Source of the DNA: Rhizophagus irregularis
Lineage: Eukaryota
Direction: 5' to 3'
Assembly (NCBI RefSeq): GCF_026210795.1
Contig: NC_089429.1
Location: 3,224,001 to 3,288,000, forward strand
DNA length: 64,000 nucleotides
The notes beneath the pieces were generated by a model. It had not been told where the DNA came from and ran no database searches. It was given only the letters and a program-made list of their open reading frames with translations. Made by a program: the position numbers and the translations under genes. The stretch's first letter is position 1. Each line of letters starts with the position of its first letter. This document shows, in pieces, positions 8,553-61,285 of this stretch.

Positions 8553-8652
8553 TTAAATAACTTGGCATCTAATAATCGTACAAAGATGTATCATAGCTTG
8601 TTAGAATCGTCTCACTGAGACGAATCGAATGGTGGTAGTTTTATCCTTTTCC

Positions 8653-9928: not shown

Positions 9929-10409
9929 TGGTGCATCTTTCTACGATTATTGGATGCCAAGTTATTATGTGAAACGTAATATTTTTAGGTTTCGACAATT
10001 TTGACATGTTGAAACTATTTCGGCATTTCAGCATTTCGACAGATTTTAGTTTCAACATTTCGACAATAGCCTGTAAAATTTCAGCAGGCAACTTTATACT
10101 TAGCCTCATGAAAATTAAAATACAAGTAGATTTAACTTGCTGAACAACCTTACTTAAGCATAAAAGATAATTTGATATAATCAAAGTGGTGAGTAATAAA
10201 ATTATATTTTAAAGTAGTATTGTGATCCAGATGAATCCATCATCCGTTCAATTCAGTCCAAAAATAAATGGATGATCTGGATGAAAATCTGATTTAATCT
10301 AAATGGAAAAAGTTATATGTACAATCTGGATGATTTGGATCTAATCTGTTAAAATATAGAGATAATAGATAGCGGATTGGTCCAGATGAATGATCTGAAT
10401 GATCCAGAC

Positions 10410-31266: not shown

Positions 31267-31539
31267 AGTTTTATCCTTTTCCTGTGCAAACAGTCTTATG
31301 ACTTTATCTTTTATTTATATTTTAAATTTCGAAAACATAATCGAACAGTATTACAAAAATAAGAAAATAAACTAATAAAAAATAAAAAGAGTAGCTTCAC
31401 GACTCATACAAGTAAAGAAATCTAAACTAAAATAAAATCAAAGCAAAGAAAAACTAAACTATTACAGAATCGCATACCCCAACTTTACCCGAAGGCCAGT
31501 GTGAGTCAACTATCCAACATCCAAAAATCCAGTTCGTTA

Positions 31540-36923: not shown

Positions 36924-37766
36924 TACTACACTATGATAAAAGGGTAAGTAGTAAAGGGAAATAATTGGGAGTTAAGAATTATTGGGAGTTCGCGTTATCG
37001 CAAGCAGCCAAGAATTGTTTTTGTTGAGCCATGCCTTGTTGAACTGTTTTAGTGAGTTCGGTAACTGTAGCAGTAAGAGAGGAAAGGCGATCTTGTGGTG
37101 AAGTGGCAGGACCAAGGATCAAACTCATACGGGGAGGGAGAGGAATATGCGATTGAGCAGTGAAATTGGGGCCATTTGGTGGCGAAGCTGGAGAACTAAA
37201 ATCCATGAGATTGTCACTAAGACGTCTAGGATCAGAGGATTCAGCATTATCCCATCCTTGATTCATAGGCTCTGGTACAGGAACAAGGGGAGTCTGAGGA
37301 TGCGGGATTTTGGAGATAAGAGGAGGAGAAGAAGAATGTTGATCTTCCAACCATTTGACATGATGTTGAAGTTGGGCAAATTCTGTAGTGAGGTGAGTAA
37401 TCTCTTCAAGTATAATAGTGATTTGTTCAGTAATATATTGCCAATCCATCAAAGGCGGAACATCCATTGCAGCAATGTCGTGATCCAAATCCGATTGAGA
37501 AGAACGATGAGGATGACGACGATTATTAGGATGAGAGCGTGAACGTGAAGATCTAGGGCGAGATTTGGATCGGGAAGGAACTCTTCTACCAGCGGTATCA
37601 GCATAAGAGCTGTGTTCTGAATTAGCAGGACGCGCAAAACGATTATGACGTTTAGCGGGGTGGGAAGGAGGTAAGTGTTTGTTGTATAATTCACGCAATT
37701 TATCATTGCTAGACCATGGACGAGAAGGACGTTGCGGAGCACGTGATGAAGCACATTTGTCCGGAT

Positions 37767-38863
37767 TAGAGCTCCGCACGGGTCAGGTCAGGTCGAGTAA
37801 TTTGTCTGATCCAAACCGAAAAATTTTTATCAGGTCGGGTCGGGTCGGGTAACCTGCTCTGACCCGACCTGACCCGTCTGACCTGAAAGTATTCAGGTCA
37901 TTTTTCTATAAAATAATATGAAAAAACGCTGTTTTGGCGATTTTTTTCATAAAAGAAGTGGGGAAAAATGCCGTTTCGGCATTTTTCCATTAAATAATAT
38001 GAAAAAACGCTGCTTTGGCGATTTTTTTTATAAAAGAAGTGAAAAAAATGCCGTTTTGGCATTTTTACATAAAATAATATGAAAAAATGCCGTTTTGGCG
38101 ATTTTTTTCATAAAAGAAGTGAAAAAAAATGCCAAAACGGCATTTTTCCATAAGATAAATGAAAAAATGCCACTTTGGCGATTGTTTCATAAAAGAAGTG
38201 AAAAAAATGCCGCTTTGGCAATTTTTTTCATAAAAGAAGTGGAAAAAAATGCTGTTTGGGCATTTTTCCATTAAATAATATGAAAAAACGCCGTTTTGGC
38301 GATTTTTTTCATAAAAGAAGTGGGAAAAAATGCCGAAATGGCATTTTTCCATAAAATAATATGAAAAAAGCCGCTTTGGCAATTTTTTTCATAAAAGAAG
38401 TGAAAAAAAATGCCAAACCGGCATTTTTCCATAAAATAATATGAAAAAACGCCGTTTTGGCGATTTTTTTTCATAAAAGAAGTGAAAAAAAATGCCGAAA
38501 CAGCATTTTTCCATAAAATAATATGAAAAAACGCCATTTTGGCGATTTTTTTCATAAAAGAAGTGAAAAAAATGCTGAAACGGCATTTTTCCATAAAATA
38601 AAATGAAAAACGCCATTTTGGCGTATTTGTTTATAAAAAACAATGCTGAAACGGCGTTTTTTTCATAAGGTAACATGAAAAAACACCATTTCAGAGTATA
38701 AACATTTTTTTTGAGCTAAAGTATTCGGGTTAACAGGTCAATCGGGTCAGGTCAAACCTGTAACCCGACCTGATACCGGGTCACGAATTTGACAACCTGA
38801 CCTGAATATTTTGGGTCAATCCGACGGGTCACCTGAATTGACTCTTACCCGTGCGGAGCTCTA
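37767..38863. mobile_element. TAGAGCTCC-family non-autonomous hAT element with an internal ~40-bp minisatellite
   Basis: Perfect 17-bp TIR TAGAGCTCCGCACGGGT; TSD GTCCGGAT/GTCCAGAT; tandem repeats at 37905-38690. Confidence 0.92.
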
Positions 38864-39339
38864 GTCCAGATTACAACCAGGGCGACCACAACGATGACAA
38901 AGAGAGGAGACTTCGGTAGGTTCATGCCAAGTAAGGCCAGTAGATTTGAGAGCACAAGTGATCCCCATAGCCGATTCTTTAGTAGCAGCAGAGGAGAAGT
39001 GTACATAGGCATAAGGTTTGGCCCTATAAAAAATATGTATACGGTTTTTATACTGTATATACGTATTTTTGATACAGTTTGCATTTTTACATACGGCATA
39101 TCAGTATAATGTATACTGTTCGCAAAATGTGCTTAGTAAAAAATACAATAAAGTATACGGTAAACATACTGTGTGATACAGTATATTAAATTCATACGTC
39201 TATAACGTATATCATTTCTACTGTATATCAGTATTTTGTATACGGTTCACAAAAATATTGTAAATAAAGGATACGGTATACGTATTATTCTACAGTATAT
39301 TAAAATTCATACGTTTATAACGTATTTTCTACAGATATA

Positions 39340-41085
39340 CACAGGTCAAATAAATAAAAATTAGATTTTTGCCCTTTTTAATATGGCTGTCTGATTTTTT
39401 GGCAATTTTAATATAATATTTCCGATTTTAATAATATTTCTGATTTTTAACATGAAATTGCCGATTTTTGGTTATTTGTAATAGGATTTTTCGATTTTAA
39501 TATATAACATGTGATTATGTATTACGGTTTAATATTTATTTATTAACTTAGATTTTTTTTTTTTATTTCAGTTATAATTATTTTTTTGCCTTAAAAACTT
39601 TACTAAAATACTTTTTAAATACTTTATAAAATAGAATTAAAATATTTTTTTTCTTAAATATAAATACATTTAAATTAAATAACTCATAATTTAAAATATA
39701 AACAAATATTATATTTTTTTTATATATATTTCAAAGTATGGTTTGAGCATTTTGGCTGAAGTAAATCTTATTCTTTTAATTAAAAGTAGTTTAGTAAGTT
39801 TAAAACTGTTAAGATCATAAAAGTACAGTTAATATTTTTGGAATTATTTACATTTTTTATATTATACAATAGTATTAAGTTACAAATTTTTTTACCTTCA
39901 GAGCGTATTTTGAGATCTTTAGCCAAAGTAAATCAACTTCTTATATTAATTGTAAGTTGTTCGGCAGGTTAAAATCTACTTGGATATTAATTTTCACGAA
40001 GGTACAGTTAATACTTGATGAGTTATTTACAATTTTCACAACAGTACTTATTCACGACTTTTATTTTTTTCATTTTGTCACTTCAGAGCGTATTTTGAGC
40101 ACTTTATCCAAAGTAAACCAACTTCTTATATTAATTGAAAGTTGTTTAGCATGTCAAAATCTACTTGAATATTAATTTTCACGAGGGTACAGTTAATACT
40201 TGATGAGTTATTCACGATTTTCACAATGGTACTCATTTACGAATTTTATTTTTTTCCGTTTTGTCACTTCAGAGCGTATTTTGAGCACTTTAGTCAAAGC
40301 AAATCGACTTCTTTTATTAATTGAAAGTTGTTTAGCATGTCAAAATCTACTTGAATATTAATTTTCACGAAGGTACAGTTAATACTTGATGAGTTATTCA
40401 CGATTTTCACAATGGTACTCATTTACGAATTTTATTTTTTTCCGTTTTGTCACTTCAGAGCGTATTTTGAGCACTTTAGTCAAAGTAAATCGACTTCCTT
40501 TATTAATTGAAAGTTGTTCAGCAGGTCAAAATCTACTTGGATATTAATTTTTACGAAGGTACAGTTAATACTTGATGAGTTATTCACGATTTTCACAACG
40601 GTACTCATTTACGAATTTTATTTTTTCCATTTTGTTACTTCAGAGCGTATTTTAAGCACTTTAGCCAAAGTAAATCGACTTCTTTTATTAATTAAAAATT
40701 GTTCAGCAGCTTAGAATCTACTTGAATATTTATTTTAATGAAGGCACAGTTAATATTTGTGGAGTTATTAATTTTTTATAATTGTGCGTATTGCATTAAA
40801 TTACAAGTAAATTTATATTCTTAATGTATTTTGTTTAAAATTAATTAATTATTTATTTAAGATTAGTTTTTTATTTAATATTGCTTAATAAAATATTTTT
40901 TAAATTTTAATTCAATATTACAATATAATTTTTTATAAAAATATATATTTCATAATGTATATACAATTTTTTTGTATAGTGAAAAAACTGAAAAATGTGG
41001 TTAAGAATTGGTAATACGGCTGTAAAAAGTCACAAATCGGACAAATATAGCTAAAATCAGCCAATTTTTATTTATTTGACGTGTG
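39340..41085. mobile_element. CAC-ended (CACTA-like) element carrying ~185-bp repeats
   Basis: TIR CACA(G/C)GTCAAATAAATAAAAATT; TSD ATA. CTTCAGAGCGTATTTT recurs at ~39896, 40081, 40267, 40453 and 40638. Confidence 0.75.
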
Positions 41086-41157
41086 ATAGAGTAAGTTTTT
41101 CTACACTTTAAAGCATCAAACAATACTAGTATCTGCTAATATGTACTACCCAAAAAC

Positions 41158-41400
41158 TAGAGGTAGGGTCCGGTCATCCGTTCAATCCGTTATTTCATCC
41201 GATCACGTGATGTAGATCACGGGTATGTAGATCATATCCTTTTAGGCGATACCCGTTCCACAAAAATATTTTTCTAAAAATCGATCTTACCGATTTTGGA
41301 AATTAGTGTAACATTCGACCTAAAAAAGGAAATGATCGACACAAATCACGTGATTTGACCGGATGACCGGATTTACGTTTTTCACCGGAGCCTACCTCTA
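41158..41400. mobile_element. hAT-type MITE
   Basis: TIR TAGAGGTAGG(G/C)TCCGGT; TSD CCAAAAAC. Confidence 0.9.
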
Positions 41401-41539
41401 CCAAAAACTCACTGATGTAAAATCACAATTATTAAAAAATTCACAAGAATTTTTGTTAATACTGTTTAATTTTTAAGTTCAAAGTCCGATTGATAATACT
41501 AAATTCAAAACTCAATTATAAATCATTTTTATAAATTAT

Positions 41540-43220
41540 AATTTAAAAATTAAGCAGTATTAAGGAAAATTCTCATGAATTTTTCTTAATACTACTTAAT
41601 ACTAATTTAACTAATTTAGTATTAAGGTTTTAATTTAAAAATTAAGCAGTATCAAGGAAAATTCTTGCGAATTTTTCTTAATACTGCTTAATTCTAATTT
41701 AACTAATTTAGTATTAAGGTTTTAATTTAAAAATTAAGCAGTATCAAGGAAAATTCTTGCGAATTTTTCTTAATACTGCTTAATTCTAATTTAACTAATT
41801 TAGTATTAAAGCTTTAATTTAAAAATTAAGCAGTATCAAGGAAAATTCTTGCGAATTTTTCTTAATACTGCTTATATCTGCCAATTCGTGAAATTAGCCA
41901 AACATAAAGATTTGCACATTTTAACAAGAATTATGTTTCACAAGCTTAAATTGTATGTGTTACATAATCAGATGATCTAAATCTATCAAAAAATAAAAAA
42001 AAATTTTTTAACGTTTATTCAAAAATAACAATGGCAACTACTTTCTTTTACAATCACTTTTCAATCACTTTTCAATCAGATTTTTGTTAGGTGACTTAGA
42101 AAAGTTTATAGGCATATATAGCAGGTTTTTTTTAATCAGTAAGTAAGAAAACAAATATTAATAATTTTTATTAATAAGAAAAATCTTTTTTCATTTATTT
42201 TTAACCTTATTTCCTTTTTTTTTTTAGTAAAAATATATACAAAATAAAAATGTGAGTTATGATTTAGAGTTTTTGAGATGTTTTTTTTTGTTTTTTACTA
42301 TACTAATTTTATTCTACTTGTTAATTACTTTTTAAAATTGATTTTATTAATTTATTCAATTTAAAACAGAAATGGCAAATAAAAACTTGTTAAGTAAAGT
42401 AAAAAGAGCCCAATAATACCTGTAAAGATCATCTTTTGGTAAGAATTATAATTTTAAAAATTTTTGTGTCAGAGTTTTATTCAATTAACAAAATCGTTAA
42501 TATCTCGGCGTACATGTATGCTAAACACATATATTTATATTCATATGAAAGCCCAGAATCTACTCTACCTGAACGAAAAAAGATTATTCAAATCGAATTA
42601 CTAGATGTGAAGATATTAGCGATCAAAGTCAAAGGTTAAAAATAAATATATTGAACGTAATTATTCAGCAACTTGTGATCCAATTCATGTGATATTTGGT
42701 TTATGGATAGCTCTTGATTACCTCTTTCTAATGAATATAAATTCATTCATCTAGCACACATACACGTTAAGTTATTCAATATTTTGTCATGACAATTATA
42801 TTTAAATTTTTTAATTTTAATGATATTATTAAAAAAATCAAAAAATAATATAATCAAATCAATTTTATTTATATCAGCGGTGTGAATCTATCATTTTCAT
42901 GTAAGTTGTATTAGCATTTTCTTAATAAAGTTAGTTTTTTGAATATAAAAACTTAATTCCATAAATCAGTCCATATGTTAATTCTAATTTAACTAATTTA
43001 GTAGTATTAAGGCTTTAATTTAAAAATTAAGCAGTATCAAGGAAAATTCTTGCGAATTTTTCTTAATACTGCTTAATTCTAATTTAACTAATTTAATATT
43101 AAAGCTTTAATTTAAAAATTAAGCAGTATCAAAGAAAATTCTCAAATTTTTCTTAATTCTAATTTAGCTAATTTAGTATTAAGGCTTTAATTTAAAAATT
43201 AAGAAAAATTTTTACAAATT
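41540..43220. repeat. 92-bp hairpin-containing tandem repeat, interrupted by an insert (41875-42977, TTA flanks)
   Basis: ATTAAGCAGTAT at 41549, 41641, 41733 and 41825; the array resumes at 42978. Confidence 0.85.
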
Positions 43221-46175
43221 TTCTTATTAAAAAAAAGAACTTTTAAATTACTAATTAAACTTTAAAAACAATCTGTATGATTTAAATTTTAAAAAAATAC
43301 TTCTGCTTTTTAATTTTCGCATTTCTACATTTAACCAATTAAAATTCAGCTGATCGCCGATCACATGCATTAATAACACGTTATTGTTTATTTTTTGTTT
43401 ATTTTTTCAAAAATATTCTTTTCTCTTCTTTTTTTTAGAAAAAAAAGACAATAAAAATGAATACCAAAATTATTTTAACATATAATAATAAAAATTAAAT
43501 AAAAAACTTATTTTGATAATATATAATATATATATTTGTACCAAACTACTAATTATACAAAAAGTGATATGCACGTATATCAATTAACAATTACTTTCAC
43601 TAATATCTCTCTGGAATTGTAATGGTGAATTTTAACAATATTAATTAAACAACTATATGTACACCGTTTTATGTTTTTATTTTTATATTAATATTATATG
43701 TTAACATATATTAATTATATTTTTTTTTTACTTTTATGTATTTTATTTAATTTTTTTAATATATTACTAACATTACTTCTATCGTTTTATTACTTTTTTA
43801 TATCTAACTAATATATTAATAATATTACTAACTTTTTATTATTTTTTTTTACTAACCTTTTATTATTCCTTTTTTATATTTAAAATAATGATAATATTAC
43901 TAATTAAATTTCTTTTTTTTTTGTTTATATTTTGCTAATATTATTTTTTTTACAAATAGTATATTATTTTATACTAGTTTTTTATTTATATTATTTATAA
44001 AAAAATATTTGTATATTTAATATTATTTAATAAAAATTTTATTGATTATAAATGCATTTTAAATTCTGTTTGCAAATATAAAATATACGATTTAATTGAA
44101 TAATATATACTATTTATCAGTACAAAATATGCAGTTTAAACTGGAAAAAAGTACTGTTTATCAGTATAAAATATACAGTTTATCCTGGAAAAGTATACTG
44201 TTCGCATTATAAAATATAAAACAATATACTGTTTATTGGTATAAAACATACGGTTTTTCTACTGTTTACAAGTATAAAACATACGGGTGAAACTGGAAAA
44301 ATATACTGTATGCAAACCGTATATATGATACGGTGTGCAGAATACCGAATATATACAGTATGTGAAAATACTGTAATTATACGGTAATAATACTATAAAT
44401 ATACTGTTCGCAAAATACGAAAATACAGTATACTAACCGTATATATATTTTTTATAGGGTGGGATTGTAAGAGTTGTAGGAGAAAGGGATGTTAACGCTT
44501 TTAGCGGAAACTTCTTCGGCAATTTCAGAAAGGTCAGCGGCAACAGAACCGCGTAGCGCCAGCAAGTGCAACATGAGCGCGTTTGACAGCGCGTTGATCA
44601 GGTGAATGAGAAGCAGGACAGACGCGTAAGCAGTATCCAGTACAAAGTACAGCCCACGTGTTTTCAAATTGATCCATGGAGGCGGCGGAGTCAAAAACTA
44701 TATACGCAGTGTGATAAAGTTTTGAAAGACGCGTGCGGCAGTGGGTAACAATACCATAACGGGAGAATGTGCCCCTTAATTGTGCATCGGTGACAAAGAG
44801 AGGGATGTCGGTAACTACCAGGGTACAAAGCTGTTCATCTGCCTTTTTAGCAGATGGGTCATGCTCGTGGAACTGTAGATCATGCAGGGAGGCGATAGGC
44901 GTAGCGATAGCTTTTTCCATATCAGGTTTGGAACGAAAGTAGACAACGATAAGTTTATTATCGCCTGATCCTTGAGTGGTAGCTTTACTACCATAAGAGG
45001 AAAAAGAGGAGAATTCTTGGTCGGTCGCGTCGCAAGCTTCGTGATTGGTTTTGAAGTGGGTCAAAATTCTTCAATAGTAGAGGGCGCAGCCGCAGCGCCC
45101 GCCGAAGGGGGAAGATTGTATAGCGGCAGTAGACGTGTCAGGAGACGCAGCGCGTTCGAGGTTCAGGAGGTGAAATTTCCACAGATTTTCCTTTATCTGC
45201 AGAGTTAGAAGGGGAATGTTGAGTCGTCATGGGAAGTACGAGTCGGGGAGGCGAAGGGGACGCGTTGGTGTCAACGAGAGGGGGAGACAAAGTTGAAGTA
45301 TTTTCCTGAGGAGCAGGAGGAGTCAAAATATTGTCTTGGTCCATAACAGGTTCAGAAGAAACCCGTGTGCGTTTTGCAAAGTTGTCGGTCAAAGGTTGCG
45401 AAGTAGGACCAGGAGTAGAAGCAGAAGAACCTTGACCTTGAACGTTGCCAGAAGGAGGACTCTGGGCAGGACGTTTTGGAGCAGAAGTACCAGAAGCTTT
45501 ATTATTTCGTCTGTTAGTCATAGCTAAAAGTAGAAGGGAGAACTAAAATATGTAATAGTTAGTAGTAACGCAAAGTAAATAATAAAAATACTTCAAAAAA
45601 ATCTTTTTTATTTTTTGTCGCAATATTGTCATGAAGGCAGTTTTATCCTTTTCCTTTGCTAATGTTTACGGCCAGACCACCCATTGCCTCTTATGAGACT
45701 AATCTCGGGTCATGTCCTATCATCTTCAATAGGCAACCATTATACCGAGACTTAATTCCTCAGGTAACAGCACCACTATAGAAGACATCCCCCATCGGGC
45801 CATTATAGGCTGATCGGAAGCTAGCGAGACACGCCGCCTACTTATCCTATACCCATTGCCCATTGCATACTGATACTCAATTTATTTAACGACCTTTAGA
45901 GAGCATCTACTTTCATGGAGGACTTTCGACAGGTAACATCAACCATCTAGTACCCTTCCATACCACCATTTTAGGTACTAAGTCTCACTCAAAGGCCACT
46001 ACAGCCCGCGATTACCTAGCACCGATAGTACAGTTGTTTACCCCAAGTGGTATACTTTGTAGTGACCACTCGGATAGAAGTAGCAGGCTTCTGTCCAGGA
46101 TCACCCCTTATGGTGGGTATCAACCACCAGGGATCACCAACCAGGACCCAAGAAGTGGGGAATCGAACCCCATAA

Positions 46176-49100
46176 GGGGCGTGCCAGAAATCAGCTGATT
46201 TCACTCAATTAGTAAGGCTAACCCTCCCACCCCCACCTGATCATTTAATCGATCATTTTGATTGGCTAAAACATTTTATATATAAGATTATAATTTCGCT
46301 TTACATCTGACTATCCGATCATTGGTTGAAAAATTTAATAATAGATATTGATTTTACATTGTTTAAAAAAAATTTTAATGATAAATAAAAAATCTTTACT
46401 ATCTATTTTCAAATAAAGTATAAATACATAAAAAAAAAAAAATAAATCATGCAAAGTTTTTTAAAAGCACCAAATTTTAGTAAAACGTTTTTTTATAAAC
46501 AACCACAAAATAAATACCAAGAATTTTGTAATGCATATGCATATTACAAGCAAGCAACGCTATGTGATCCTAAATTAAATCGTGAAAAATTATCCCAAGA
46601 ATGTGCAAGTGAATGGAAAGATGTTAAAAAACATGATAATGTTTTTATTGAAAGTAAAATTTGTGAATATTATGAAACTATACCTACCACTGTTCGTTCT
46701 CATCAACAAATTCTTATATCACGTAATGCAACGCCTAGTTCTCATCATACTCCTACACCTTCAACCTCAAAGCAATATAAAGAATATATTGACATTACAT
46801 CTTTACCAAAAAATGCCAAATCGCAATATGATGCAGCTGTAAAAATTAATTCAGCTATGAAAAAAATATCTGAGTGTGAACAAATGATGGAGATTGCATC
46901 AGACGATTCAATGAAAGTTATGTTATCATCTAAATTAATTGAAGAACAGAAAGTTGTATCAGAACAAAATGCACGGTTAAACAAATTAAAACGTCATGCT
47001 GATGCACAAGCAAAGCTAGCAGCAAAAAAGGACAAACTTTTTGAAGAGGGAATTGTAGAAAGATATGATACTCCAGGAAGGCCATCTGCAGCTATGAAAG
47101 ACCCAGAACTATGGGATAAAATACATGATAGTATTGAATTTGGAGCTGCTCATGCTAAACGTAGAAAAGTAGTTATTAAAGTAAGAACAATAAAACATTT
47201 ACGTGAAACTTTAGAAGAAAAATATAATACCTATTTATCTCGCCAATGCTTGTCAACTTATCTTCAACCTCGCCATCAGAACACTTTTGCTGCACGTCGT
47301 CATCATCATCCAACAAAAGTAGGCCTTGCCTCTGTAGCACGAACAGAAATGAAAACTCATATTGATGAGCATTATTGTCTAGCTTCTGTTAAAGCTGCAA
47401 GAACATTTGCTGAAGTTTTTGCAGATGAAACAATTATTATTTCTCAGGATGATAAGGCAAAAATTGGATTGGGAATACCTGCAGTTGGACGCACATTTAA
47501 AGCAATTCAAACAACAAATGAACCAGTAACTGTTGAGGATCATGATTTTCCGATGGGTTCAAAGATGAAATTAATACCATCTGTTTATCTAATAATTAAT
47601 CCAGCTGATTCAAGTGATACTCTTCGAACTGGGCAGCTCTCTATTTTCATTAGACCAGAATATTTTATTGGAACGTCATCTGCAACTCATATGGTTGATT
47701 TAAAAAATATTATTTCTAATGAAAAATTTTCTGCAACTTTAAAAAAAGAAAATGAAGTTAAACCAATTTTAATTCTTCTTGTTGATGGTGGGCCAGATGA
47801 AAATCCAAAGCATATGAAAAATATCATTCAATATGCTCACCTTTTTCATACCCTTGACTTAGATTATTTAACTATTCGCACTCATGCTCCAGGTCAAAGT
47901 GCATATAATCCAGTAGAACGAAGCATGGCATCTTTATCTGCAAAACTTGCTGGTATTACTTTACCGATAGGAGAATTTGGATCACATCTAAATAGTCAAG
48001 GAAATGTAGTGGATGAAGAATTAGCACGAAAAAATTTTGAATATTCAGGTAAAAGGCTTTGTGATATATGGGAAAGAGATGACATACATGGAAAACCTGT
48101 TACGGTTAAATATATCAATCAGGAAAAAAACCCGTTTGATAATGAGCCTCCAATATTATGGAACTGGATAGAACGTCATGCACAGATGTGTCGTTACTCA
48201 TTAGATATAAAAAAATGCAAAGACCGAGAATGTTGTTACGAGTACAGAGCGCCAGATGTAGCAACCCTTTTGGACGAAAATAATGGATTTCTTCCTTCAA
48301 TCATAAAAGGAAGAGATGGTCATTTCATTAACTCAATTCATGCTCTTGATTATTATGATAAGCTTAAAATTCAAGAGTATGATCGTTATTGTCCTTCAAT
48401 TTCACAGGAATTATATTAACGCTTATGTTGTAATATATGCGGCAAATATTTTCCAACTCTTAAATATATATCTGAATACAAACGAAATATACATTCTTTA
48501 AAACAAACTGCCAGGAAATCAAAACGAGTCCAGAAACAAAATAACGAAACAGAAATGGAATGTGTATTTATTGTAAATACAAACTTTAATGAAGCGGAAG
48601 ACATATTTCAAAGAGTTCCGTGGCAAGAAACAGTACAAGATTTTTGTGCAGTTCAGTCAGACGAAGAATAAATGGTATTGTTTTTAATGTTTATAAGATA
48701 TAATTTTTTTTTTATTTTCAGTGAATTTGTGATACATAATACAACATAAAACTGAATAAAGAAAAAATTTGCCGAACTATATAAAATGTAAATCAATTTG
48801 CCGCAGTGAAACTAATTAACTAACTAATTTCTGATTTCTGGCTATAGAGTTTCAGTCCGAAACTAAACTGTTCCTAAAAAAAAGAGAACGTAAGAAAGCC
48901 TTTTTTGGAAAAAATTAATCAACATTATCTCCCAACCTTCATTTACCTGTATTTTCGTACACCAACCTCCAACAACCCTACAAAAAGAAAAATAGAAATG
49001 TTAGTATATTCGTTTTTAAAGGAAACAACGAAAAAACTCCTCTCCCGGTCTCTCCTTACCAAAATCCAGAAGTTCAGTGACTCCGGTCATGCTGTTCGTC

Positions 49101-49627
49101 CGGAATCCCTATAAAAAAGAATGAAAAAATAAATTAAATTTCCTAAAAAAAACAAAATTATAAAATAACGAAAAAAACCTCTCTACCTCAATTCAAAAGT
49201 CCAGTCACGTTTCTTGTCTGGAAATCCTACAAAAAAAGAAAAATATATATTAGTTACGTAGTTGCATTCTTTTTAAAAAAAAAATCAAAAACGAAAAACC
49301 TCTCCTTCGGACTTTCCTTTCTCAATTCCAGAAGTCCAGTCCTATTTTTCATTCGGAAACCCTACAAAAAAGAAAAATAAAATAAATGTTAAATTTATTA
49401 AAAAAAAAATAAAAAATATATCGAAAAAACTTTTTACCTCAATTTCAAAAAGTCTGGCCTGTTTTTCGTCCGGAAACCTTACAAAAAAGAACCTAATTTC
49501 GGCAGTCGACCTTAAATTATTATATGTAAGAAATTAACCAATAAAAAGCATGTCACGTGATTAAAGACCTGATCCGCAGACTGAACCCCCCACCCCCTAT
49601 CAAATCAGCTGATTTCTGGCACGCCCC
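46176..49627 (+). mobile_element. Zator DNA transposon
   Basis: Perfect 26-bp TIR GGGGCGTGCCAGAAATCAGCTGATTT; 3-bp TSD TAA. Confidence 0.9.
46449..48671 (+). CDS. Zator (TP36-like) transposase: 656-aa ORF plus 83 in-frame codons after one premature stop
   Basis: SQDDKAK, DHDF, VDGGPDENP, APGQSAYNPVERSMA. After TAA 48417-48419 the frame continues RLCCNICGKYFPTLK...H to a stop at 48671. Confidence 0.85.
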
Positions 49628-50107
49628 TAACCATGCTACCTGTTCTGTGCACGAACACCTTGGTTGGTCTAAGACCTAACAGAAGGTCAAACTACCATTA
49701 AGACATTGCACCCTCAGCTTTACCATCTAGGACGACCATCTAGCCATTACTGACCCCAAGTGGTATCGTGGAGTGACCACCTAAACAGGAAGTCCCCCCA
49801 AGGTATAGTAGTAACCTCAAGGACAGGACTGCGCACATACCAATGGCCTCATAGGGAACGTTAGAAGGACACCATGACCCTTAGTTGAAATGTGCAGCCT
49901 AACCGTACACACTAATTCACCATGATGCAGTCCAACTACACTAATCCCTGTACCTTCACGCTATTGGTTGTAGCGTCCGCAGTAAAATTCTTTTTATTTC
50001 CGTGGTCATGGGAATCGAATCTGCGACCTCACCATACTCAGGCTTAATAAGGGTCTCAGTGATTAACCACCGAGATAGGGTGACCAACTCTAGTTTTATC
50101 CTTTTCC

Positions 50108-50260
50108 TTTGCTAATGTTTACGTCCGACCACCATTCACTCTTATGAGACTAATCTTGGGTCTGTGTCCTATCATCTTCAATGGGCAACCATTATACCGA
50201 GTACTTAATTTTTCAGGTAACAGCACCACTATAGAAGACATCCCCCATCGGGCCATTATA
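50108..50260 (-). mobile_element. 5'-truncated SINE-like unit (153 bp), type-1 3' end
   Basis: Matches 45655-~45807 and lies between two copies of the 16-bp repeat. Confidence 0.85.
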
Positions 50261-50762
50261 AGTTTTATCCTTTTCCGATTACTGGCTGACGAGTTATTCA
50301 ACAAAATGTTAAACATCGGCATTATAATATTTTTTGATTTACGTTTACTGCGCCATTTAACATTTTGCTAGATTTCTCGGTACCTAGTGATTGTAAAAAG
50401 ACGATTTATAGCTCGTTGGAATCGCCTCATCGAGACAAATCGAATGGTGGTAAGTTCATCTTTCTGTGATCTGTGATCAATATTGATGGAGTTATTACTT
50501 AAAAACCATTTAATATTTTTTAATTTCGGAAATTAATTTAGTGATTGGATTTCGACGTATTTTATACCATTAGAACCGTCTCATCAAGACGAATCGAATG
50601 GCGGTAAGATCATCTCTCTACGATTAATATTGGTGAAGTTACGATACAATAAAGTTTTAAGTATAATTTTGGCTAAAATTATGTTAATTTTTGGCCGGAA
50701 TTATGATATGCAAATATAAGAAATTTTTTATATAGTCACATCTCTTTATAATCACCAAATAT

Positions 50763-51231
50763 TGATCCTGGGTAACACCTACAAGCTTACTGTCCAGGTG
50801 GTCACTACAAAGTATACCACTTGGGGATTACAACTGTACTATCGGTGGTGGGTAATCGCGGGCTGTAGTGGCGCTTTGAGTGAGACCTGTTACCTAATAT
50901 GGTGGTATGGAAGGGGTCTAGATGTTTGAAGGTTATCGACGAAAGTCCTTCGTGACGTAGTAGTGGTGAGGGGTTATAATAGTAGCCGTTACAGTATCGT
51001 ACAACAGATTAAAGGACGAGTAGGGTGGTGTTCGGCAGATTCGAAGGCCTTCGGGTCCCTGGGATAAGTCCTTGCGTTTCGGTTGTGGTGTTGAATTGTC
51101 CCTGTTAAAAAGGTGGCGGGGATGGTTACATCATGGCTTAGTGAGGATGATGCAATGAACGACCTACCTCCATAGCCTTCAATAGAGGGTGCGGAAAGTA
51201 GTGGCCACTAAACTTACAAAACACTTGTAAA
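50763..51231 (+). mobile_element. 5'-truncated SINE-like unit, type-2 3' end
   Basis: Collinear with ~59812-60805 minus the MITE; ends CACTTGTAAA. Confidence 0.85.
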
Positions 51232-51555
51232 ATAATCACCAAATATGAGGATCATTGCAACTCTTTCCTGAATTTTTGAAAATACTAATAAAATTAATTT
51301 TTGAAATTTTCGTTCGAAAATTTCTAAGTGCTCGTTCATAATACTAATATTTCCACAGTTGCTTTCCTCTTTACTGAGCTTTATACTATGACTACACCTC
51401 CAGCTCCTTTTGTTATTAACCCAGATATTCTGCCGCCACCGCGTCCTGTTATCTCTGCTTCCCTTCCCTTCCAGGACCGACCCCTTTACCTTTCATTTCC
51501 CACCTAATACCGCCGGCGTACCAAATAAACGTTCGCGTACTGTCTCGAGGACGCT

Positions 51556-53520
51556 ATGAATGTTGATATAACTTCGCCCTCTGCTCCTGCTCCCAACCTT
51601 ATTTCTACCGTTCCTTCTGGTCTTCCTGTCAACAAAGTCCATGTGATTACACCTCCTCAAAATACTACCACTCCTGTTGAAACTGTTGATGCTTCTATCC
51701 ATGCTCCCTCTAACACCAGTAATAAAGGCAAAGCTGTCGTCTTTGATATCCCAGAACGACGACCATCTCCTGATGGGAATGCTGCTGCTATCAAATCCGC
51801 ACCTTCTCGTTATCATGCTGTGGCCTACTTACACGACACGCCTGACGCGTTCAAAGCTAAATTCACCACCAACTGCTCCATGTGTGACGAAGTGGATTGT
51901 TCGCTCTCCTGTTATTCTTCTTATGGTGCTCGCGCACGATGTGAAGGATCAGCTGATAACAAGAAAATCCTTATCTTCTTCAATAATCATGATGATTATA
52001 CCGATTGTATCACCTCCCCACGTGCCGATCTCCTTGATTTGGCCTTCAGTCATTATTCTCCTGCAGACGCCAAGCTCAGTGATGAAATGAAGTCTTTGTT
52101 CGTCACTGATATCCCACTTTTCCTAACCGAGACTCAAGTCCGTCAGGCATTTTCCCGATATGGCACTGTAATCAAGTGCAAACTTACTCCTAGGAAATAT
52201 TACTATAATGGACATATCCAGTTTTCCTCCGCAGATGCAGTTACCCAATTTAATGATATTTGGACGATCATTTGCCTTGGTAATTCTTTACGTGTCTGTC
52301 TGGCATCTTTTTCGAAATCCCAACGCGATAGCCGCAGAGAACATGTTGCTATCCTCGCCGGCATCCCAAAGAATATTAAAGAAGCTGACCTGTTGGAAAT
52401 TGCTACTCAAGTTAACGCTAAGGCCCTTAACGTTCCTCTATCTATCAGTTCCTACAAGCCTAAACCCTATGTATATTTGAATTTCTCTTCATTTGAATCT
52501 CTTGAAGCTGCCAAAGAAATGACCGTGGCTTTCCGCGGCAAAGGATTAACATGGCACCCTCCCAATGAAGCACAAACTTTATGCCAGGTTTGTGGGCGTC
52601 CTGGTTGTTCTCCCTCTGTATGTAATCCTCATACCACACGGAAAGTGGATGATCGCCTTAATAAACTTTATTCTCGCTTCAATGCTGGCTCTAGACGTGG
52701 TCATCAGGATTCACGCCAATCACGTAAAAATTCCAATTCCCGTTCAAGATCGCGATCCAATTCTAGATCCCGCAATAATAATTCCTCTTCATCCCGCTCC
52801 AACAACAATAACAATAATACTAACACTTCTCGTCCCAATACTTCTCGAAGTAACAACCGGACCAACAATAATACTAATAATCACAGGAACAATGAAAATT
52901 CTTCCGGTTCTACTCAACCTCCATATAAACCTCATTCTGTCAGTTATACACCACCTACTTCTCCATCTGACAATCCTGCCCATACACTTCCTCAACATAT
53001 TATTGATGATTTAAAGGTGCAGATCAAAGAGATCGTTAACACCCTACATACTCTAGAGGAAACTGTCTCTTGGATGAATGATACTATCACGTCCCATGAG
53101 TATAGGCTATCTGAGCTTGAATCAATGATGAATTATGACAACCCTGGTGACTCTGATTTGTATCTGCCTCGTGATGATCATGAAAATCAAAATCATTCTT
53201 ATGATAATGGATGGGATGATGCCCCACCCCATGACACGAATTCTGGATTCAATCTTCCTCTCCATACTTCCCCTTCTCTCATGGATACTTCTCCTGATGC
53301 TTCTTTCTCAGCTCTGGATCCTAACTCCGTCTTATCAAGAAGACATGTCCCGTTGCCTAACTCCCGACCTACTATTATTGCTCCCGATGCTAATACTTCC
53401 CGTTTGCAATTGGAGATTTCTAATGTCACCAATACACAAAAGAATCTTTCTGCCCAACTTGGTTCGATTATGGAAAAATTGGACTCCTTCTCTCCCTCAA
53501 AAACCCTCCCCTTCCAATGA
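51556..53520 (+). CDS. LINE B ORF1 protein (RRM domains, CX2CX4CX4C knuckle, SR/N-rich region, coiled coil)
   Basis: 654-aa ORF with LFVTDIP..AFSRYGTV, YVYLNF and CQVCGRPGCSPSVC. The true start may be ATG 51388 with a frameshift. Confidence 0.85.
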   Translation: MNVDITSPSAPAPNLISTVPSGLPVNKVHVITPPQNTTTPVETVDASIHAPSNTSNKGKAVVFDIPERRPSPDGNAAAIKSAPSRYHAVAYLHDTPDAFKAKFTTNCSMCDEVDCSLSCYSSYGARARCEGSADNKKILIFFNNHDDYTDCITSPRADLLDLAFSHYSPADAKLSDEMKSLFVTDIPLFLTETQVRQAFSRYGTVIKCKLTPRKYYYNGHIQFSSADAVTQFNDIWTIICLGNSLRVCLASFSKSQRDSRREHVAILAGIPKNIKEADLLEIATQVNAKALNVPLSISSYKPKPYVYLNFSSFESLEAAKEMTVAFRGKGLTWHPPNEAQTLCQVCGRPGCSPSVCNPHTTRKVDDRLNKLYSRFNAGSRRGHQDSRQSRKNSNSRSRSRSNSRSRNNNSSSSRSNNNNNNTNTSRPNTSRSNNRTNNNTNNHRNNENSSGSTQPPYKPHSVSYTPPTSPSDNPAHTLPQHIIDDLKVQIKEIVNTLHTLEETVSWMNDTITSHEYRLSELESMMNYDNPGDSDLYLPRDDHENQNHSYDNGWDDAPPHDTNSGFNLPLHTSPSLMDTSPDASFSALDPNSVLSRRHVPLPNSRPTIIAPDANTSRLQLEISNVTNTQKNLSAQLGSIMEKLDSFSPSKTLPFQ

Positions 53521-56500
53521 TTGAACACCAATTTATATCGGGTGGTTCACAGGGATCTCACCCCCCTGATAGTGCGCTACTTAATATTAATAGTCCTAAT
53601 AACTCTCCTTCTTCCTTTTCCCCTCTTATTAATTTTGGACAAATCAATGTTAATGGTCTGTGCTCCCCTGTTTGTCAGTTGCATTTGTTAAATTATTTTC
53701 TCCATTCTTCTTTTGGCATTTTATCTTTAAATGATACTCGTCTTACTTCTTCTAGTGCTAAATTTATTTATCAAAATGAACATGCCCAACATAATTTTAA
53801 GTCCTATTGGGCTCCTTTCCCTTCTAATTCACGACCTCATGATGGTGTTGGTCTTTTACTTCGCCATCCCTTACATAAACATGTTCAGAAAATTGATCCT
53901 TGGAAAGGTCGCCTTTTAAAATTAGATCTTTTTTTTCATCAAACAAAAATTTCTATCATTTCTGTTTATATTCCTCCCTATCATTCTGTTCATTATAAAG
54001 AACGTGATGCTATTTTTGCCCAACTTAATTTATGGCTTGATAAAGCCCGCTCTAATAACTATCACGTAGTCATCCTTGGTGATTTTAATGCAGATGAAAT
54101 TTCACATTCATATCTCCCTCAACATTATTTGAAAATTTTACGATCACTTTCTTCTCGATATTTTACGGATCATCAATCTTATATTTCTTCAATTTCAGGT
54201 CCTAGTCCTACCTTTTATCATCAGAATGGTTCTTCTAGACTTGATTATATTTGGTCATCCCCTGGCTTTCTTGCTCCCAGTCTTTTCTCTCATGTTGAAT
54301 CTAGTCCTAAGTTGAATGATAACCAATTTACTGACCACCGTGTACTCATAACGGCCTTCGACTTTAATTCTTGTTTCGCTACTTTAGCCAAAGCTAGACT
54401 AAAACAGAAAAGCGAACAACGCACCATTTTTCTCTATAAGAATTTAAAAGAAGACACGTGGGACACATTTTCTAATGAAGTAAACTCACGTCTTGAGTTG
54501 TACTTGGTCACACACCATCCTTCTGTATCTTCACTTTCAGCTCTTTCATTAGACAAACTTTGGTACGCTCTTAAACGCTCTATTCTTGGTGGTGCCATTG
54601 ATTCTCTTCCATTTCAACATGTATCCAATACTTATCACCATAAATATTCTCTGGAACTTACGATGCTTATTGCTATCAACAAATTCTTGGATAGATTATT
54701 GTTTAAATTGACCACATCTCAGACTACTCGCCCCGCTCAAATTTCACAAATGATCAATTCTTTACCTACACAATTAACTCTTTTGAAATTCCTTTTAATA
54801 GATTATACTATACCTACTTATAGTACAACACCACTTCCTGCTTTTGTCAAATTTTTGCGTTCACAAAAAGCTTTGGTCTCTGCTTATCTTTCCACGCAAT
54901 TTCATCAACATCGTGTGGATTCCATTGAATTTTATACTGCTCTTAGAGATGAACATTTCTCTACGTCGCCGGGTTCTTTTATCTCTTAAGCTCTGTCAGT
55001 GGAACATCGCTCTATCGTTCTTGATAGAGTTTTGGTTGTAATTGACTCCAAACCTACTTTACTTACTGAACCTTCAGACATCAAACAAGCTGCTATCAAA
55101 CACTTCCAATCGGTTGTTACTCCTCCATTGGTTCAGCATTCTTCTATTGATAAATTTCCTCCACGCTGGCAAAGAGCATATACTCCTATTTCTGACATCG
55201 ACTCGTCTTTATACACCTCGGTCATGTCTCCTATTTTGGATGATGAATGGATAAATATTCGCAAATCTATGCCTAATAACAAAGCCTCTGGCCCCTCTAA
55301 AATTTCTTATGAAATGCTCAAACATTTAACTGGAGAAGCTTTCAATTTGTCTCTTGTTTTAGCCAATGCCTGCCTTATTCATGGTGATATTCCTGCAGAT
55401 TGGCGTGAAGCGCTTATTTATCCCATTCCGAAGCCTCATGAATTTGACGCTCAATTAAAGAATACACGACCTATCACTTTATTAGAAACTGTTTGGAAAT
55501 GTGTGGTCAAGATCGTTACAACTCGTCTTTCAAAAATTCTAGCTGATAACCAAATACTTCAGGGTGGTAATTTTGCTGGATTACCAGGTGGATCTACTGA
55601 CATTCCTATCAAAATGCTTGACGCAATTATTCATCAACGCCGCTTTGATAAAACTGATGACCAAGAGTTATGGATTGTTTCCCAAGACATTTCTAAGGCC
55701 TTTGACTCGATTGATTTAAATATGCTCAAGTTGGCTTTAATCCGTTTACATATCCCACCCTTGTTGATAAAATTTATTATCAATCTTTTCACAAGACGCA
55801 ATAACAAAATTATTACTCATTATGGTGATACTTCCGGATATAGAGTTAGAATCGGTATTGATCAGGGTGAAATTATTTCCCCGTTATTATGGGTGATTTA
55901 TTTGGATCCTTTACTTACAACGCTTAATCGAGAAGCTTGTAATCCTTTTATTTTGAAATCCTCTGCTTTATTGGATTATTCCCCGATTGAATATGAACAA
56001 CATAACCTTCCTGTTTCACATATCACATTTATGGATGACTCTACTTTGATTGCTTCATCTAAACGAGGAATTGAAGATCGCCTTTCCATTACAGCTGAAT
56101 TTTATACTTTAAATAATACTCAAGCTAATTCAGCTAAATATATCCTTCTTTCTTCTGAACAATTCTCTCAAACTATAGTGTTTGATCTTTTCCCATCTCC
56201 TTTAATCCAAACTTGTACTCTTACTTTAAAAGCTTTAGCTTTATCCAAGTCTTTTCGCTTTTTAGGTGTCTGGTTTTGGTTTTCAGCTTCTTCTCGCTTT
56301 GTTCATGATCAAAGTATTTCCATGGTCAAAGACATGGCTGCTTTACTCAGTCCTAAGAAACTTTTGGCACAACATGTGGCTTATCTTTATAACGTTGTCT
56401 TACTTCCAAGGCTAGAATTTCGCCTACAAACCACATTATTTGCTGAATCCATTATTAATCGTATGGTTTCTCCAATGCTTTCTCTTATTCGACAAAAGGC

Positions 56501-58990
56501 TGGTTTAGCCTCAGTCACTCCTCTTTCCGCGCTTTTCACATTGTTGCCGTTCTCTATTCAACAAGCATTTGGTCGATTTCTATCATCTCATGTAGCTTCA
56601 TGGCAAAAAATTTTTTCTCACCCTTTACATATAAAACCTTTGCCAATTATATGATTACTTATCTCCAAAGCTTCCTAGATTGTGATGCCTGTTCTTCTAC
56701 TATTGACTTGGAACCATGGTCCCATACATTTTCCTTGCGAACACATTCTTTGTTTAATTCTTTATTATTCTCTTCTCGTTTGAATATCACGTGGTCTTTA
56801 TTGTTCCGACCTCTGAGGAAAGATCTACGTCTGGCAATTCCACTCTGGTCGATTTTACCAAAAGACTTATTCACTTCCATGAAAAATGTTCAGAAAAAAT
56901 TTTGTACTCGTTTTCTTGCCCAATTGGTTACTCCGTGTGGCTCTCGGCTTCTTCCATGGAAAGATTTACGCTTTCTTAAATGAGTTTCGAACAAAGGATC
57001 TGTGCCTGCTTGGTTTACTTATTTATTTAATTTAGTTGTTATTTCTAATTCTTCTTCTTTTTTTCTTTTACCGCAATTTAGAATACCTAATTCCTATACT
57101 GTAGCTTCTATCTGTTCTATAGATATTAGTCGAAATTATTTGTTCAATCCACAATGGGCTATTTTTTTTAATCGCGATACTAACTCTTTCCTTGTTGGCC
57201 GTGTGATCATTACCTATCCTGCTCCGCGAAATGAAGCTCTTATTTCACATTGGATTGCGTCATCTATCGATGACTTATTATCAGAATTCACTGCATGCCA
57301 AGGTTGTGCCTCTGCTATTCTGCGATCCTCTACTTCCAAAACATTGTTTAAACGATGTCCCTCTGAAAAGTGCTTCTCTTATATGCCTTTATCAAGTCTT
57401 ATCCGTTACCTTACGAAGCCTCATACTTATATACATGTGGATACTCGTTCGGTCTCACTTTCCGCTTCGTTAGGCTATGCCAAATCTCTTTTACTATTTT
57501 ATCTTTTTGCTCCAGTTCGGTTACCTCCTATGCTTAACCAAGTGTCTAGGATTTCTGATATCCAACTTCCTTCTTCGGTGTCTACCCTGTATATTGATGG
57601 ATCCTTCCTTCCTCCTTCTAGTCATCCGACACCTTCGATGGCTTATGCATGGACTGCTATCGATTCTGATGGTTTTATTCTTGAATCTCATTATAATACC
57701 ATTCCTTCACTCTTTCCCTCTGCATTGCGTTCCGAAATTTTTGCCTTATTGCATGGATTGGACTCCCTGCCTCGGTATTCCAAGATCACTGTCGCTACTG
57801 ATTGTGCTCAATTAATTTCCTTATGGACTACGTATGTGGATGCTCCGTTCATTCCTAAAATGCTCAAAGAATTCAACCACCTTCTATGGTCTTCGGCACG
57901 AGCTATTATTTCACATAAGAATCTGGAAGTTACTTTAATCAAGGTTCCTGCTCACGCTGACGATTCTTTGAATAACCATGTTGATGACTTAGCGAAAGCT
58001 GCTCATACAGACTCATGTCTTTCCTTTATTTCGCCTGCATTTTTAGCTCCTTGTATTTTACAATTTAATTCTTTACCTGGGGATATGAATATCCGGAAAT
58101 TCATTGGAGATATTTTTGACGCCAAGAGTCTTTTGACTCTTGCTTTATTACCAAGATTCAATCTTAATTCCTCTTTTTCGGATATTGATTGGGCTTGTAC
58201 CAAATTTTGTTTTAATAATAAACAATTACAATCCTCCCATCGAAATGGCCGGTCTGAATTTTGTGCTTTCCGTATCAAGATTTTATTGGATATGCTTCTG
58301 ACACTCACAACTTTTCAAAAACAAAAGCCTCATATCTATGATCCGAGTTGGCTCTATCCTCAGTGCAACTCCTCTCCTGAGACTTTAGACCACTTATGGA
58401 CTTGTCCTTATATTTTACCTGAATTTAGTCCTTTTAATACTTTTAAAACACTTCTGCTGGACCTTAAAACCGTTTGTCTTGGAAAATTTCTCTCTGCAAC
58501 TCCTTTGAAATCTTTACCGGACTATTTCGCTGTGAAATTTATGGCTATGGATTGTTGGGACTGTAACCCTCCTTCAAATTCTTGTCTGCGATTTGCACGT
58601 GGACTTATACCGATGTCTCTTACTAGTTTTCTTGGAACATATTTTTCATCATCCACTATTTGTTCTATTTTTGATACACCTTTACATGAATTTCATTTTG
58701 ATCTCTATGTACAAATTTGGTTGTGCCGTTCCGTTTTCTTTCACCATTGGGAATTAGCTCAAGGCATTACCAATAAAATGAAATCGTCCGCTATTGGACT
58801 TTCTCCTATTATTCGTCCTTTCTCAAATGTTTCTCCTTATTCTTTGACACCTTCCTTGGCGACAGCTTCCTTGGATTTCTGGGTTTCTTGGGTTTCCTCT
58901 TACATAATCCATGGGGGATCTTGGATTTCGCATTTGGATTTTTGGCACCGCTTAACAGTTCAGCCTCTACTTAGGATTTCTTTTTGGTAA
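53517..58990 (+). pseudogene. LINE B ORF2 (APE - RT - RNase H - CCHC) with two stops and one frameshift
   Basis: ORFs 53517-54989, 54999-56654, 56600-56983 and 57002-58990. Motifs LGDFN, SRLDYIW, GIDQGEIISP, FMDD, LYIDGS, KVPAH. The start overlaps the ORF1 stop (ATGA). Confidence 0.93.
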
Positions 58991-59270
58991 CAGATTGGAT
59001 CTTCGGATATGCTGGATAGTTGACTAACATTGGCCTTCGGGTAAAGTTGGGGTATGCGTTTCTGTAATAGTTTAGTTTTTCTTTACTTAATTTTATTTTG
59101 TTTAGATTTCTTTACTTGTATGAATCGTGAAGCTAGTTCTTTTTATTTTTTATGTTTAATTTTCTATATTTTATTTGTAATATTGTTCGATTTGAGTTTT
59201 GTACTTTTCGTTTAAAAATTTATAATAAAAGATAAAGTCATAAGACTGTTTGCTCATAATCACCAAATAT

Positions 59271-60805
59271 ATGAGTTGGTCACCCTATCTTAGTGGTTAG
59301 TCACTGAGACCCTCATTAAGCCTGAGTATGGTGAGGTCGCAGGTTCGATTTCCATGACCACGGAAATAAAAAGAATTTTACTGCGGACGCTATAACCAAT
59401 AGCGTGAAGGTACAGGGATTAGTGTAGTTGAACTGCATCGTGATGAATTAGTGTGTACGGTTAGGCCGCACATTTCAACTAAGGGTCATGGTGTCCTTTT
59501 AACGTTCCCTGCGGCCATTCGGCATGTGCGCAGTCCCCTGTCCTTGAGGTCACTACTATACCTTAGGGGGGACTTCCTGTCTGTGTGGTCACTCTATGAT
59601 ACCGCTTGGGGTCAGTAATGGCTAGATGGTCGTCCTAAATGGTAAAGCTGAGGGTGCAATGTCTTAATGGTAGTTTGACCTTCTGTTAGGTCATAGACCA
59701 CCCAAAGTGTTCGTGTACAGACAGATAGCTTGGTGGCGATTGGCTCAATTCCTCTCCGACGCCTTGCATGGCGTATTCCCTTGGCAGGGTTGATACCCAC
59801 CAATTAGGATGATGATCCCGTAACACCTACAAGCTTACTGTCCAGGTGGTCACTACAAAGTACACAGTGAAATTCGATAAACCGGATCTATCGGTTCCAC
59901 TAAAAATATCCGGTTTATCGGGATATCCGGTTTAGCGAAAAAATTTCGATATATTGAAAATCTATTATATTGAATTTTTAAAAAATTTTCATGCTAATAA
60001 AACTAATATACACTATAATTTGATTTTTTTCATCTAGTTTTAAGTTATAGGAGGTCATGAAAATGAATATAAAATATTTTAATTGAATATATAAGTAATA
60101 TTAACTTCAGCCGGAATTAAGATTTTTATAATTCCGGCCAAATTTAAGATTTACCGCATCACGTTACTTAAATTTTATTGGTTCCGAGCTACGTGATCCG
60201 GTTTATCGAATCATTTTTACTATAGCTGGTTAGAAAATTGATCCGTTATAGCGAATATCGAGCTTTTACTAGTAAACTCCGGTATATCGAGCCTATTTTA
60301 ATATACGTGATTTGGTTCCAGCAAAAAAGTCCGGTTTAGGCCCAAATCCGGTTTATCGAATATCCGGTTTATCGAATTTCACTGTGTATACCACTTGGGG
60401 ATTACAACTGTACTATCGGTGGTGGGTAATCGCGGGCTGTAGTGGCCTTTGAGTGAGACCTGTTACCTAATATGGTGGTATGGAAGGGGTCTAGATGTTT
60501 GAAGGTTATCTGACGAAAGTCCTCCGTGACAGTAGTAGTGGTGAGGGGTTTATAATAGTAGCCGATTACAGTATCGTACAACGGATTAAAGGACGAGTAG
60601 GGTGGTGTTCTTCCGATTCAAAGGCCTTCGGGTCCCTGGGGTATGCCTGATTGATGGACGTGCTGGATAAGTTGTCTTGGTTAAAAGGTGGCCTTGATGA
60701 CATCTGGTGGTTCAATGATGGTGAGGATACGAACGACCTACCTCCATAACCTTCAATAGAAGGTGCGGAAAGTAGTGGCCACTAAACATACAATACACTT
60801 GTAAA
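59271..60805 (+). mobile_element. Full-length SINE-like element, type-2 3' end, containing MITE 59863-60386
   Basis: Head GGTCACCCTATCTTAGTGGTTAGTCACTGAGA...GGTTCGATTTCCATGACC. The 5' ~450 nt is close to type 1; the 3' ~270 nt differs. Confidence 0.85.
59863..60386. mobile_element. pogo-like MITE
   Basis: Perfect TIR CACAGTGAAATTCGATAAACCGGAT; TA TSD; empty site at ~50812. Confidence 0.92.
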
Positions 60806-61285
60806 ATAATCACCAAATATGGACTGTCCCAAATGTGTGACTATAAAGAGAGTTGACTGTATAATACTTTTATAAAAAATTTATGTTATGCTAACTTTTA
60901 TAGTTTCAACCTCCAGATGTTACTTATTAGTGAAAGGTAAGTATTACTTTTAAATATATAAATATATGTATTTTTCTATGAAGAATCAGTTTACTTAATA
61001 AATAAAAAGCAAGTTTCTTAATAAAATTTATGGTAAATCTAAATTTACAATTTTAGCAAAAATTAGCCAATATTAAACTTATAAAATGTATATAAATAAT
61101 TGCTAATTTTTTTTGTATAAATACAATTTTAATTGCAAATTACATGTTATAATAAAATAATATTTTAAATATCTACAATATTTAACAAATTTTATAATTT
61201 GACTAATTTTTAAAAGTTGTTAATAGTAAAAGTATTTCAATAACTATTCAATTTTAATATAATTTAATATATAATTACTTTTAAA

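Follow-up and report, generated by a model that had tools for sequence, protein, structure and literature searches.

The 64-kb stretch of Rhizophagus irregularis DNA analysed here (the window) holds two arrays of LINEs and SINEs inside a single host MITE. In array 2, the 15-mer ATAATCACCAAATAT stands before, between and after a truncated SINE, a LINE and a full SINE, with exact copies at 50748, 51232, 59256 and 60806, all on the plus strand. The principal features, in which TSD denotes a target-site duplication, are the following:

8637..9930, minus: solitary A-type SINE (body 8653-9930), with the array-1 16-mer and its flank at the 3' end
29994..60859, no strand: host MITE A, TA-flanked and with inverted ends, about 820 bp in its empty state (296+486+39), holding arrays 1 and 2
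30274..50276, minus: array 1, with five exact 16-bp TSDs at 50261, 50092, 45639, 31267 and 30274
50748..50762, plus: 15-bp TSD copy 1, with native MITE sequence upstream
50763..51231, plus: 5'-truncated SINE with B-type tail, 469 bp
51232..51246, plus: 15-bp TSD copy 2
51247..59255, plus: LINE B, full length, decayed, 8.0 kb
59256..59270, plus: 15-bp TSD copy 3
59271..60805, plus: full SINE, about 1.0 kb without its insert, B-type tail, no poly(A)
59863..60386, no strand: TA-flanked palindromic MITE, 524 bp, a later insertion into the full SINE
60623..60647, plus: short motif found in the tail of the B-type SINEs and in the 3' UTRs of both LINEs
60806..60820, plus: 15-bp TSD copy 4, with the native MITE end downstream

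An earlier note on this DNA had described array 2 as four identical 15-mers bounding a truncated SINE, LINE B and a full SINE on the plus strand, roughly 470 bp from array 1 in the same MITE and on the opposite strand; this layout is confirmed, with a measured distance of 471 bp and array 1 on the minus strand. When up to two mismatches are allowed, the 15-mer has six matches against 0.85 expected, a number reached in 0 of 100 shuffles. The bases on either side vary among the copies, with one A possibly common to the element 3' ends, and because the flanking letters differ from copy to copy the shared block is set at 15 bp.

The inverted ends of the host MITE start CAGTCAACTC, and one pair, at 29994 and 60859, encloses both arrays; from the type of its ends we take the element to be Tc1/mariner-like. 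Contigs of four public runs (X1, X2, X5 and X11) were compared with positions 50000-60900 of the window, and the empty MITE copies with a single 15-mer that the earlier note had proposed to look for were found there, as a joint from 50747 to 60806, in six contigs of X2, six of X11 and one of X5 (three of the four runs; none in the X1 contigs). At this joint, 15-16 letters fit either side. Given an empty site with one 15-mer, the spacer of array 2 is a TSD derived from the MITE. A related MITE at 174-373 carries repeats two mismatches away from the 15-mer. Two further observations concern the MITE itself. In X11 and X5, its right end (60862) is joined to LINE B sequence (57118 and 59216), which suggests insertion of the host MITE, in its turn, into the very LINE that targets it. 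At 2906-7300, the first 204 bp match the host MITE's left end at 98.5% identity and are followed by a multi-exon frame; with no Pfam matches in the two pieces of this frame that were scanned, and no matching right end in the window, the region is possibly an autonomous relative of the MITE.

LINE B comprises a remnant of ORF1 (51529-53520) with an RRM domain and, from 53517, an ORF2 with APE, RT and RNase H, spread over several frames and with an in-frame stop at 54987. The Pfam matches are RRM, Exo_endo_phos, RVT_1 and RNase_H, with RNase H in both LINE A and LINE B; the RT profile matches R2 and L1 ORF2 structures, and a PDB search with the LINE endonuclease (EN) gave weak exonuclease III-type matches only. 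With an ORF2 bearing APE and RT, no LTRs, a TSD and a fixed 3' end, LINE B is an APE-type non-LTR element. Its nearest proteins are from Rhizophagus irregularis and are at most 95% identical, and another LINE B copy in X11 starts at the same base, 51247. Among LINE and SINE copies, 5' truncation is variable and the 3' end is fixed; both LINEs have AATAAA about 32 nt from the 3' end, yet no poly(A). The APE motif at 53640-53740, which usually carries a metal-binding Glu, reads Asp in both LINEs, whose remaining catalytic motifs look intact.

The two LINEs are 75% identical in RT, 64% in the EN plus linker and 42% in ORF1, and their 3' UTRs are about 87% alike, with the last 25 nt identical. At 85% identity or above, 13 of 118 scored proteins are A-like and 14 B-like. 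Judged by their sequences, LINE A and LINE B are distinct multi-copy sister families. Fragments of a third, older LINE family, interrupted by insertions and with neither a 3' end nor a spacer recognised in them, lie on the minus strand at 11864-17340.

More distant relatives were sought in public contigs. At 80 metagenome loci examined, neither the SINE nor the host MITE was present; the SINE-head pattern had no matches in metagenome contigs, and searches with the LINE RT gave no match in viral contigs and distant or short matches only in genome contigs. Among the nine distant relatives with 3' ends listed, five are A-tailed. In a quick tree, which took in only relatives without family names and no named reference RTs, L001, the one other locus without a tail, groups with A and B in a clade of 11 rows (SH-aLRT 98) that excludes the tailed loci. 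The ORF2 of the Tx1 clade typically lacks RNase H; since RNase H is present here, LINE A and LINE B are not filed as Tx1. At L001:6186-6788 lies an intact relative (38% in RT, no poly(A)), with an ORF1-like start about 130 nt further on that weakly matches (E 0.02) the LINE start at 17123-17242 of the window; to judge from these letters, L001 could possibly be a head-to-tail tandem in another genome. A stem pairing the stop-codon region with the last 15 nt appears to close LINE 3' UTRs, with sequences that differ by family: it was reached in 0-4 of 500 shuffles in L009, L011, L015, L017 and L025, and in 28 and 63 of 500 shuffles in A (31283-31571) and B (58952-59255), and it was not seen in L001 or L014.

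Six SINE copies lie in the window, all non-coding (no ORF of 150 aa or more) and TSD-flanked, some of them 5'-truncated. All have a common head, and their tails are of two types, A and B. The head of the full SINE (about 59276-59365) is tRNA-like, with A-box and B-box-like motifs; a closed multi-arm fold carrying these motifs was obtained (z -1.2 and -1.9), with no tRNA call by ARAGORN or Rfam, and searches for ribozymes or tRNAs gave nothing near threshold in the SINE, at the LINE 5' end or in the 3' UTR. The 3' ends are constant (4/4 A-type and 2/2 B-type) and have no poly(A). Within the window the subtypes sort by target: both B-type SINEs and LINE B sit at the 15-mer, and all four A-type SINEs and LINE A at the 16-mer, though the last 22 nt of the SINE subtypes match neither LINE. 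The B type contains an internal 26-nt motif that is matched in the 3' UTR of each LINE (5/300 and 0/300 shuffles); the A type gives no such match. The 11-nt core of this motif occurs only four times in the window (51046, 59032, 60623 and 31497), and the motif shows no unusual folding. The two B-type SINEs of array 2 differ across a segment of about 80 nt, and for this reason the truncated copy at 50763-51231 is not a local duplicate of the full one.

In array 1, the 16-mers bound three SINE-A units, of which one is truncated and another is interrupted by 3.4 kb of inserted DNA, and LINE A, which itself bears nested insertions; LINE A stands before the last, uninterrupted SINE-A in the order of the TSDs given above. 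The two spacers are unrelated, as the earlier note had held, the best ungapped overlap being 7/14, and 5/15 against the reverse complement. The array-1 16-mer is likewise multi-copy; it occupies a 16-bp slot that is found between the same flanks in the uninserted units at 50437 and 50591, and the X2 consensus 5' of SINE heads (32 contigs, agreement 0.71) contains it. The sister family appears to use an unrelated 16-base site in the same way. The 3.4-kb element inside the array-1 SINE (46176-49627) has inverted ends that begin GGGG and is flanked by a duplicated TAA; its 657-aa frame gives a weak match to DDE_Tnp_ISAZ013, and it is presumably Zator-like; elsewhere, at 19909-21246, lies what reads as a decayed Tc1-like transposase element with inverted ends.

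The solitary A-type SINE has the array-1 16-mer on its 3' side only; its 5' end bears a different 16-mer, in about the same register of a palindromic unit (8552-9966), and the SINE unit carries a later palindromic insert at about 8939-9234. Relative to array 1, its flank is identical at 99 of 101 positions and its body at 845 of 950 (Fisher p=0.0016), a contrast that is not significant when restricted to the last 227 columns (p=0.11). These unmatched TSDs could reflect a spacer carried by the RNA, gene conversion between MITE arms, or a deletion.

The 15-mer of array 2 recurs at other insertions in the contigs. The MITE flank is followed by the 15-mer and a LINE from 55274 in one X5 contig; the LINE end is followed by the 15-mer and then by a LINE from 56042 or 57635 (X5, one contig each), by the full LINE start at 51247 (X11) or by the MITE flank (one contig in X1, five in X2); and a B-type SINE end precedes the 15-mer in one X11 contig. 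The three truncation joints (55274, 56042 and 57635) all come from X5 and may be assembly chimeras, and because X1 is possibly the source sample and a single study supplied both X2 and X5, the independent support amounts to two to three studies. The rows listed comprise 15 of 260 joints, 12 of 168 linker rows and 24 of 2687 loose ends for positions 50000-60900, and 12 of 32 loose ends for 59208-59318; among them, one X11 LINE 3' end continues into an unrelated flank, and cross-use of the two targets between the families is absent from these rows and could hide in the rest. Summed contig depth at the 15-mer (59260-63) relative to the LINE end (59244-47) is 116k/288k in X11 and 107k/271k in X2; about 40% of the LINE-3'-end depth enters the 15-mer in two studies, a figure that is summed contig depth, not copy number, and that mixes A, B and other tails. 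The criterion for a target-specific element in the consulted text of Kojima (2015; PMC4494074) is more than 20% of flanks of one type. Only 8-11k of depth crosses from the 15-mer into the SINE head (59208-59318). A unit of SINE, LINE and SINE acting as an LTR element was considered and rejected, as about one tenth of the 15-mer depth reaches the SINE head and LINE-LINE and LINE-MITE junctions exist.

These joints also bear on the notion that each spacer marks one old insertion, later multiplied by MITE transposition, segmental duplication or unequal exchange. Although the inverted ends of the host MITE are intact and its depth in the run contigs is multi-copy, and although the solitary SINE has its 3' flank in common with array 1, the elements in the stack differ from one another, a segment distinguishes the two B-type SINEs, and the 15-mer is followed by no fewer than five different 5' partners, which leaves such an origin very improbable. 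In the portion of PMC4494074 that treats tandem insertions, truncated copies serve to show independence and as a test against hitchhiking; here, the insertions at the 15-mer are judged independent by their distinct truncation points, on single contigs of which three are from one run. Least probable among the alternatives is an account with arbitrary spacers, in which an array could arise anywhere, either because priming is repeated at one unsealed break or because the first TSD made is used again. It would accommodate the identity of the spacer copies, the common order of the two arrays (truncated SINE first) and the single off-target LINE end among the rows listed, but it is largely refuted by the recurrence of the same two spacers, with different truncation points, in runs of different studies. 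The same recurrence modifies a claim of the earlier note: that the spacer derives from the site holds for the 15-mer, which comes from the MITE, whereas the spacers are not peculiar to single sites and behave as two family-level targets. Its further view, that array building is repeatable, is borne out.

Array 2 is best explained as a set of separate insertions, stacked at a single 15-bp site in a multicopy MITE and probably made by a LINE family with sequence specificity, together with its SINE; the same 15-mer is also used elsewhere in related genomes, probably through targeting by this family, which would copy it at each landing. Under this reading, the APE endonuclease of family B would nick both strands 15 bp apart, and target-primed reverse transcription with two nicks would duplicate the 15-mer and leave the target open for the next insertion; arrays would grow because each insertion keeps its target, in keeping with the principle, set out in the part of McGurk and Barbash (10.1101/158386) seen here, that target-preferring elements which make TSDs preserve their target. 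New copies would enter the 5'-most TSD, by analogy with the re-insertion proposed for R1 in the relevant section of Stage and Eickbush (2009; PMC2718515), and the sister family A with the A-type SINE would use the unrelated 16-mer. A rule that array growth ends once the 5'-most element begins with T agrees with both arrays, but was dropped because the joint from 59270 to 56042 contradicts it. Both predicted nicks at the empty 15-mer read TAT and then a purine; since the nick motifs are common in the window (56 and 266 sites, the former for this pattern), specificity needs more information than those bases. The exact tailless 3' junctions may owe something to transcripts extending into the TSD and base-pairing with the nicked strand; the constant tailless ends fit such read-through priming, and equally an RT that starts at a fixed base.

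A stronger role for RNA can be envisaged, in which the EN nicks loosely, the target is set mainly by read-through into the TSD and flank, and a copy landing in a new multicopy repeat founds a new target lineage with its proteins unchanged. The two LINEs have nearly alike 3' UTRs ending identically, yet unrelated targets; their 3' ends are constant and tailless while over half of the listed distant relatives are A-tailed; and the SINE subtypes sort by target despite terminal sequences that match neither LINE. In addition, the array SINEs have no internal T5, with the first T5 lying 42-561 nt beyond the six SINE ends checked, the solitary SINE bears its 16-mer at the 3' side alone with a better conserved flank than body, and read-through pairing improves R2Ol insertion in the experiments excerpted from PMC6795142. 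Against these points, about one shuffle in four is expected to lack T5 as well, the contrast between body and flank loses significance over the last 227 columns, and the solitary SINE is explained as well by MITE-arm gene conversion or deletion. Moreover, the ENs have diverged, and swaps of the EN change the target in TRAS1/SART1, according to the passages of PMC1919474 available here; because these swaps move the target, EN-led targeting with help from RNA is ranked first and RNA-led targeting, which we consider unlikely, second. It is doubtful that tailless transcripts, running on through their own TSD and using it as a guide, set the landing site of this fungal LINE/SINE system and would allow retargeting to unrelated repeats without new EN specificity, with the SINEs following. 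The best reading remains one of two sister LINE families, both with a SINE subtype of their own, directed at different and unrelated sites of a single MITE family.

Several known systems offer comparisons. The ingi and RIME elements of Trypanosoma brucei combine a LINE bearing APE, RT and RNase H with a short partner, stacked at one site with a 12-bp duplication between them. RIME is a deletion derivative of ingi, unlike the short element here, an independent tRNA-like SINE. The closest parallel lies in the crocodilian SINEU-3 and Tx1-Mar, which, in the portion of Kojima (2015; PMC4494074) consulted, have a non-autonomous Mariner-type element as their target, make a TSD of 16 bp and occur as tandem insertions with the TSD sandwiched between them. 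The system described here likewise pairs a LINE with a SINE at a Mariner-type non-autonomous target in such tandems, but differs in its fungal host, its tRNA-like SINE head (theirs being snRNA-derived), its RNase H-bearing LINE, its mixed LINE and SINE stacks of up to four elements, and its two sister families at two sites of one MITE. In the tandem R1 elements of Drosophila 28S rDNA, copies are also separated by an exact TSD (14-bp in R1), and TSD-making with a target preference preserves the target (PMC2718515; 10.1101/158386, as excerpted); the R1 target is a conserved host gene, whereas here it is transposon sequence that differs between sister families, with SINEs in the arrays. Xenopus Tx1L, cited in PMC4494074 and PMC1919474, resembles the present LINEs in being an APE LINE that inserts specifically at one site of a DNA transposon, the non-autonomous Tx1D, but the arrays here include SINEs, none of which appear in the Tx1L accounts of these two papers as excerpted. 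For R. irregularis, a SINE and several LINE types are named in the main text of PMC11075540, in which "target site", "nested" and "MITE" occur 0 times and whose supplements or curated library may hold these families; likewise, the literature searched contained no description of target-specific LINE/SINE arrays in Glomeromycota, and Repbase or subscription journals may hold them. From the crocodilian and Drosophila cases, such targeting with stacking at TSDs is known already; new are the fungal host, the RNase H-bearing LINE, the lack of poly(A) despite tailed relatives and the switch of target at 75% RT identity.

Retroelements that target transposons and stack at TSDs appear to be extended from animals to a fungus. 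Two close families with unrelated targets of 15 bp and 16 bp in one MITE provide a natural comparison of the endonuclease with RNA-DNA pairing as determinants of LINE target choice, and an all-RNA inserter that is site-specific and whose target can be switched would be useful in genome engineering. For AMF genomics, the arrays suggest that some repeats accumulate within other repeats, away from genes.
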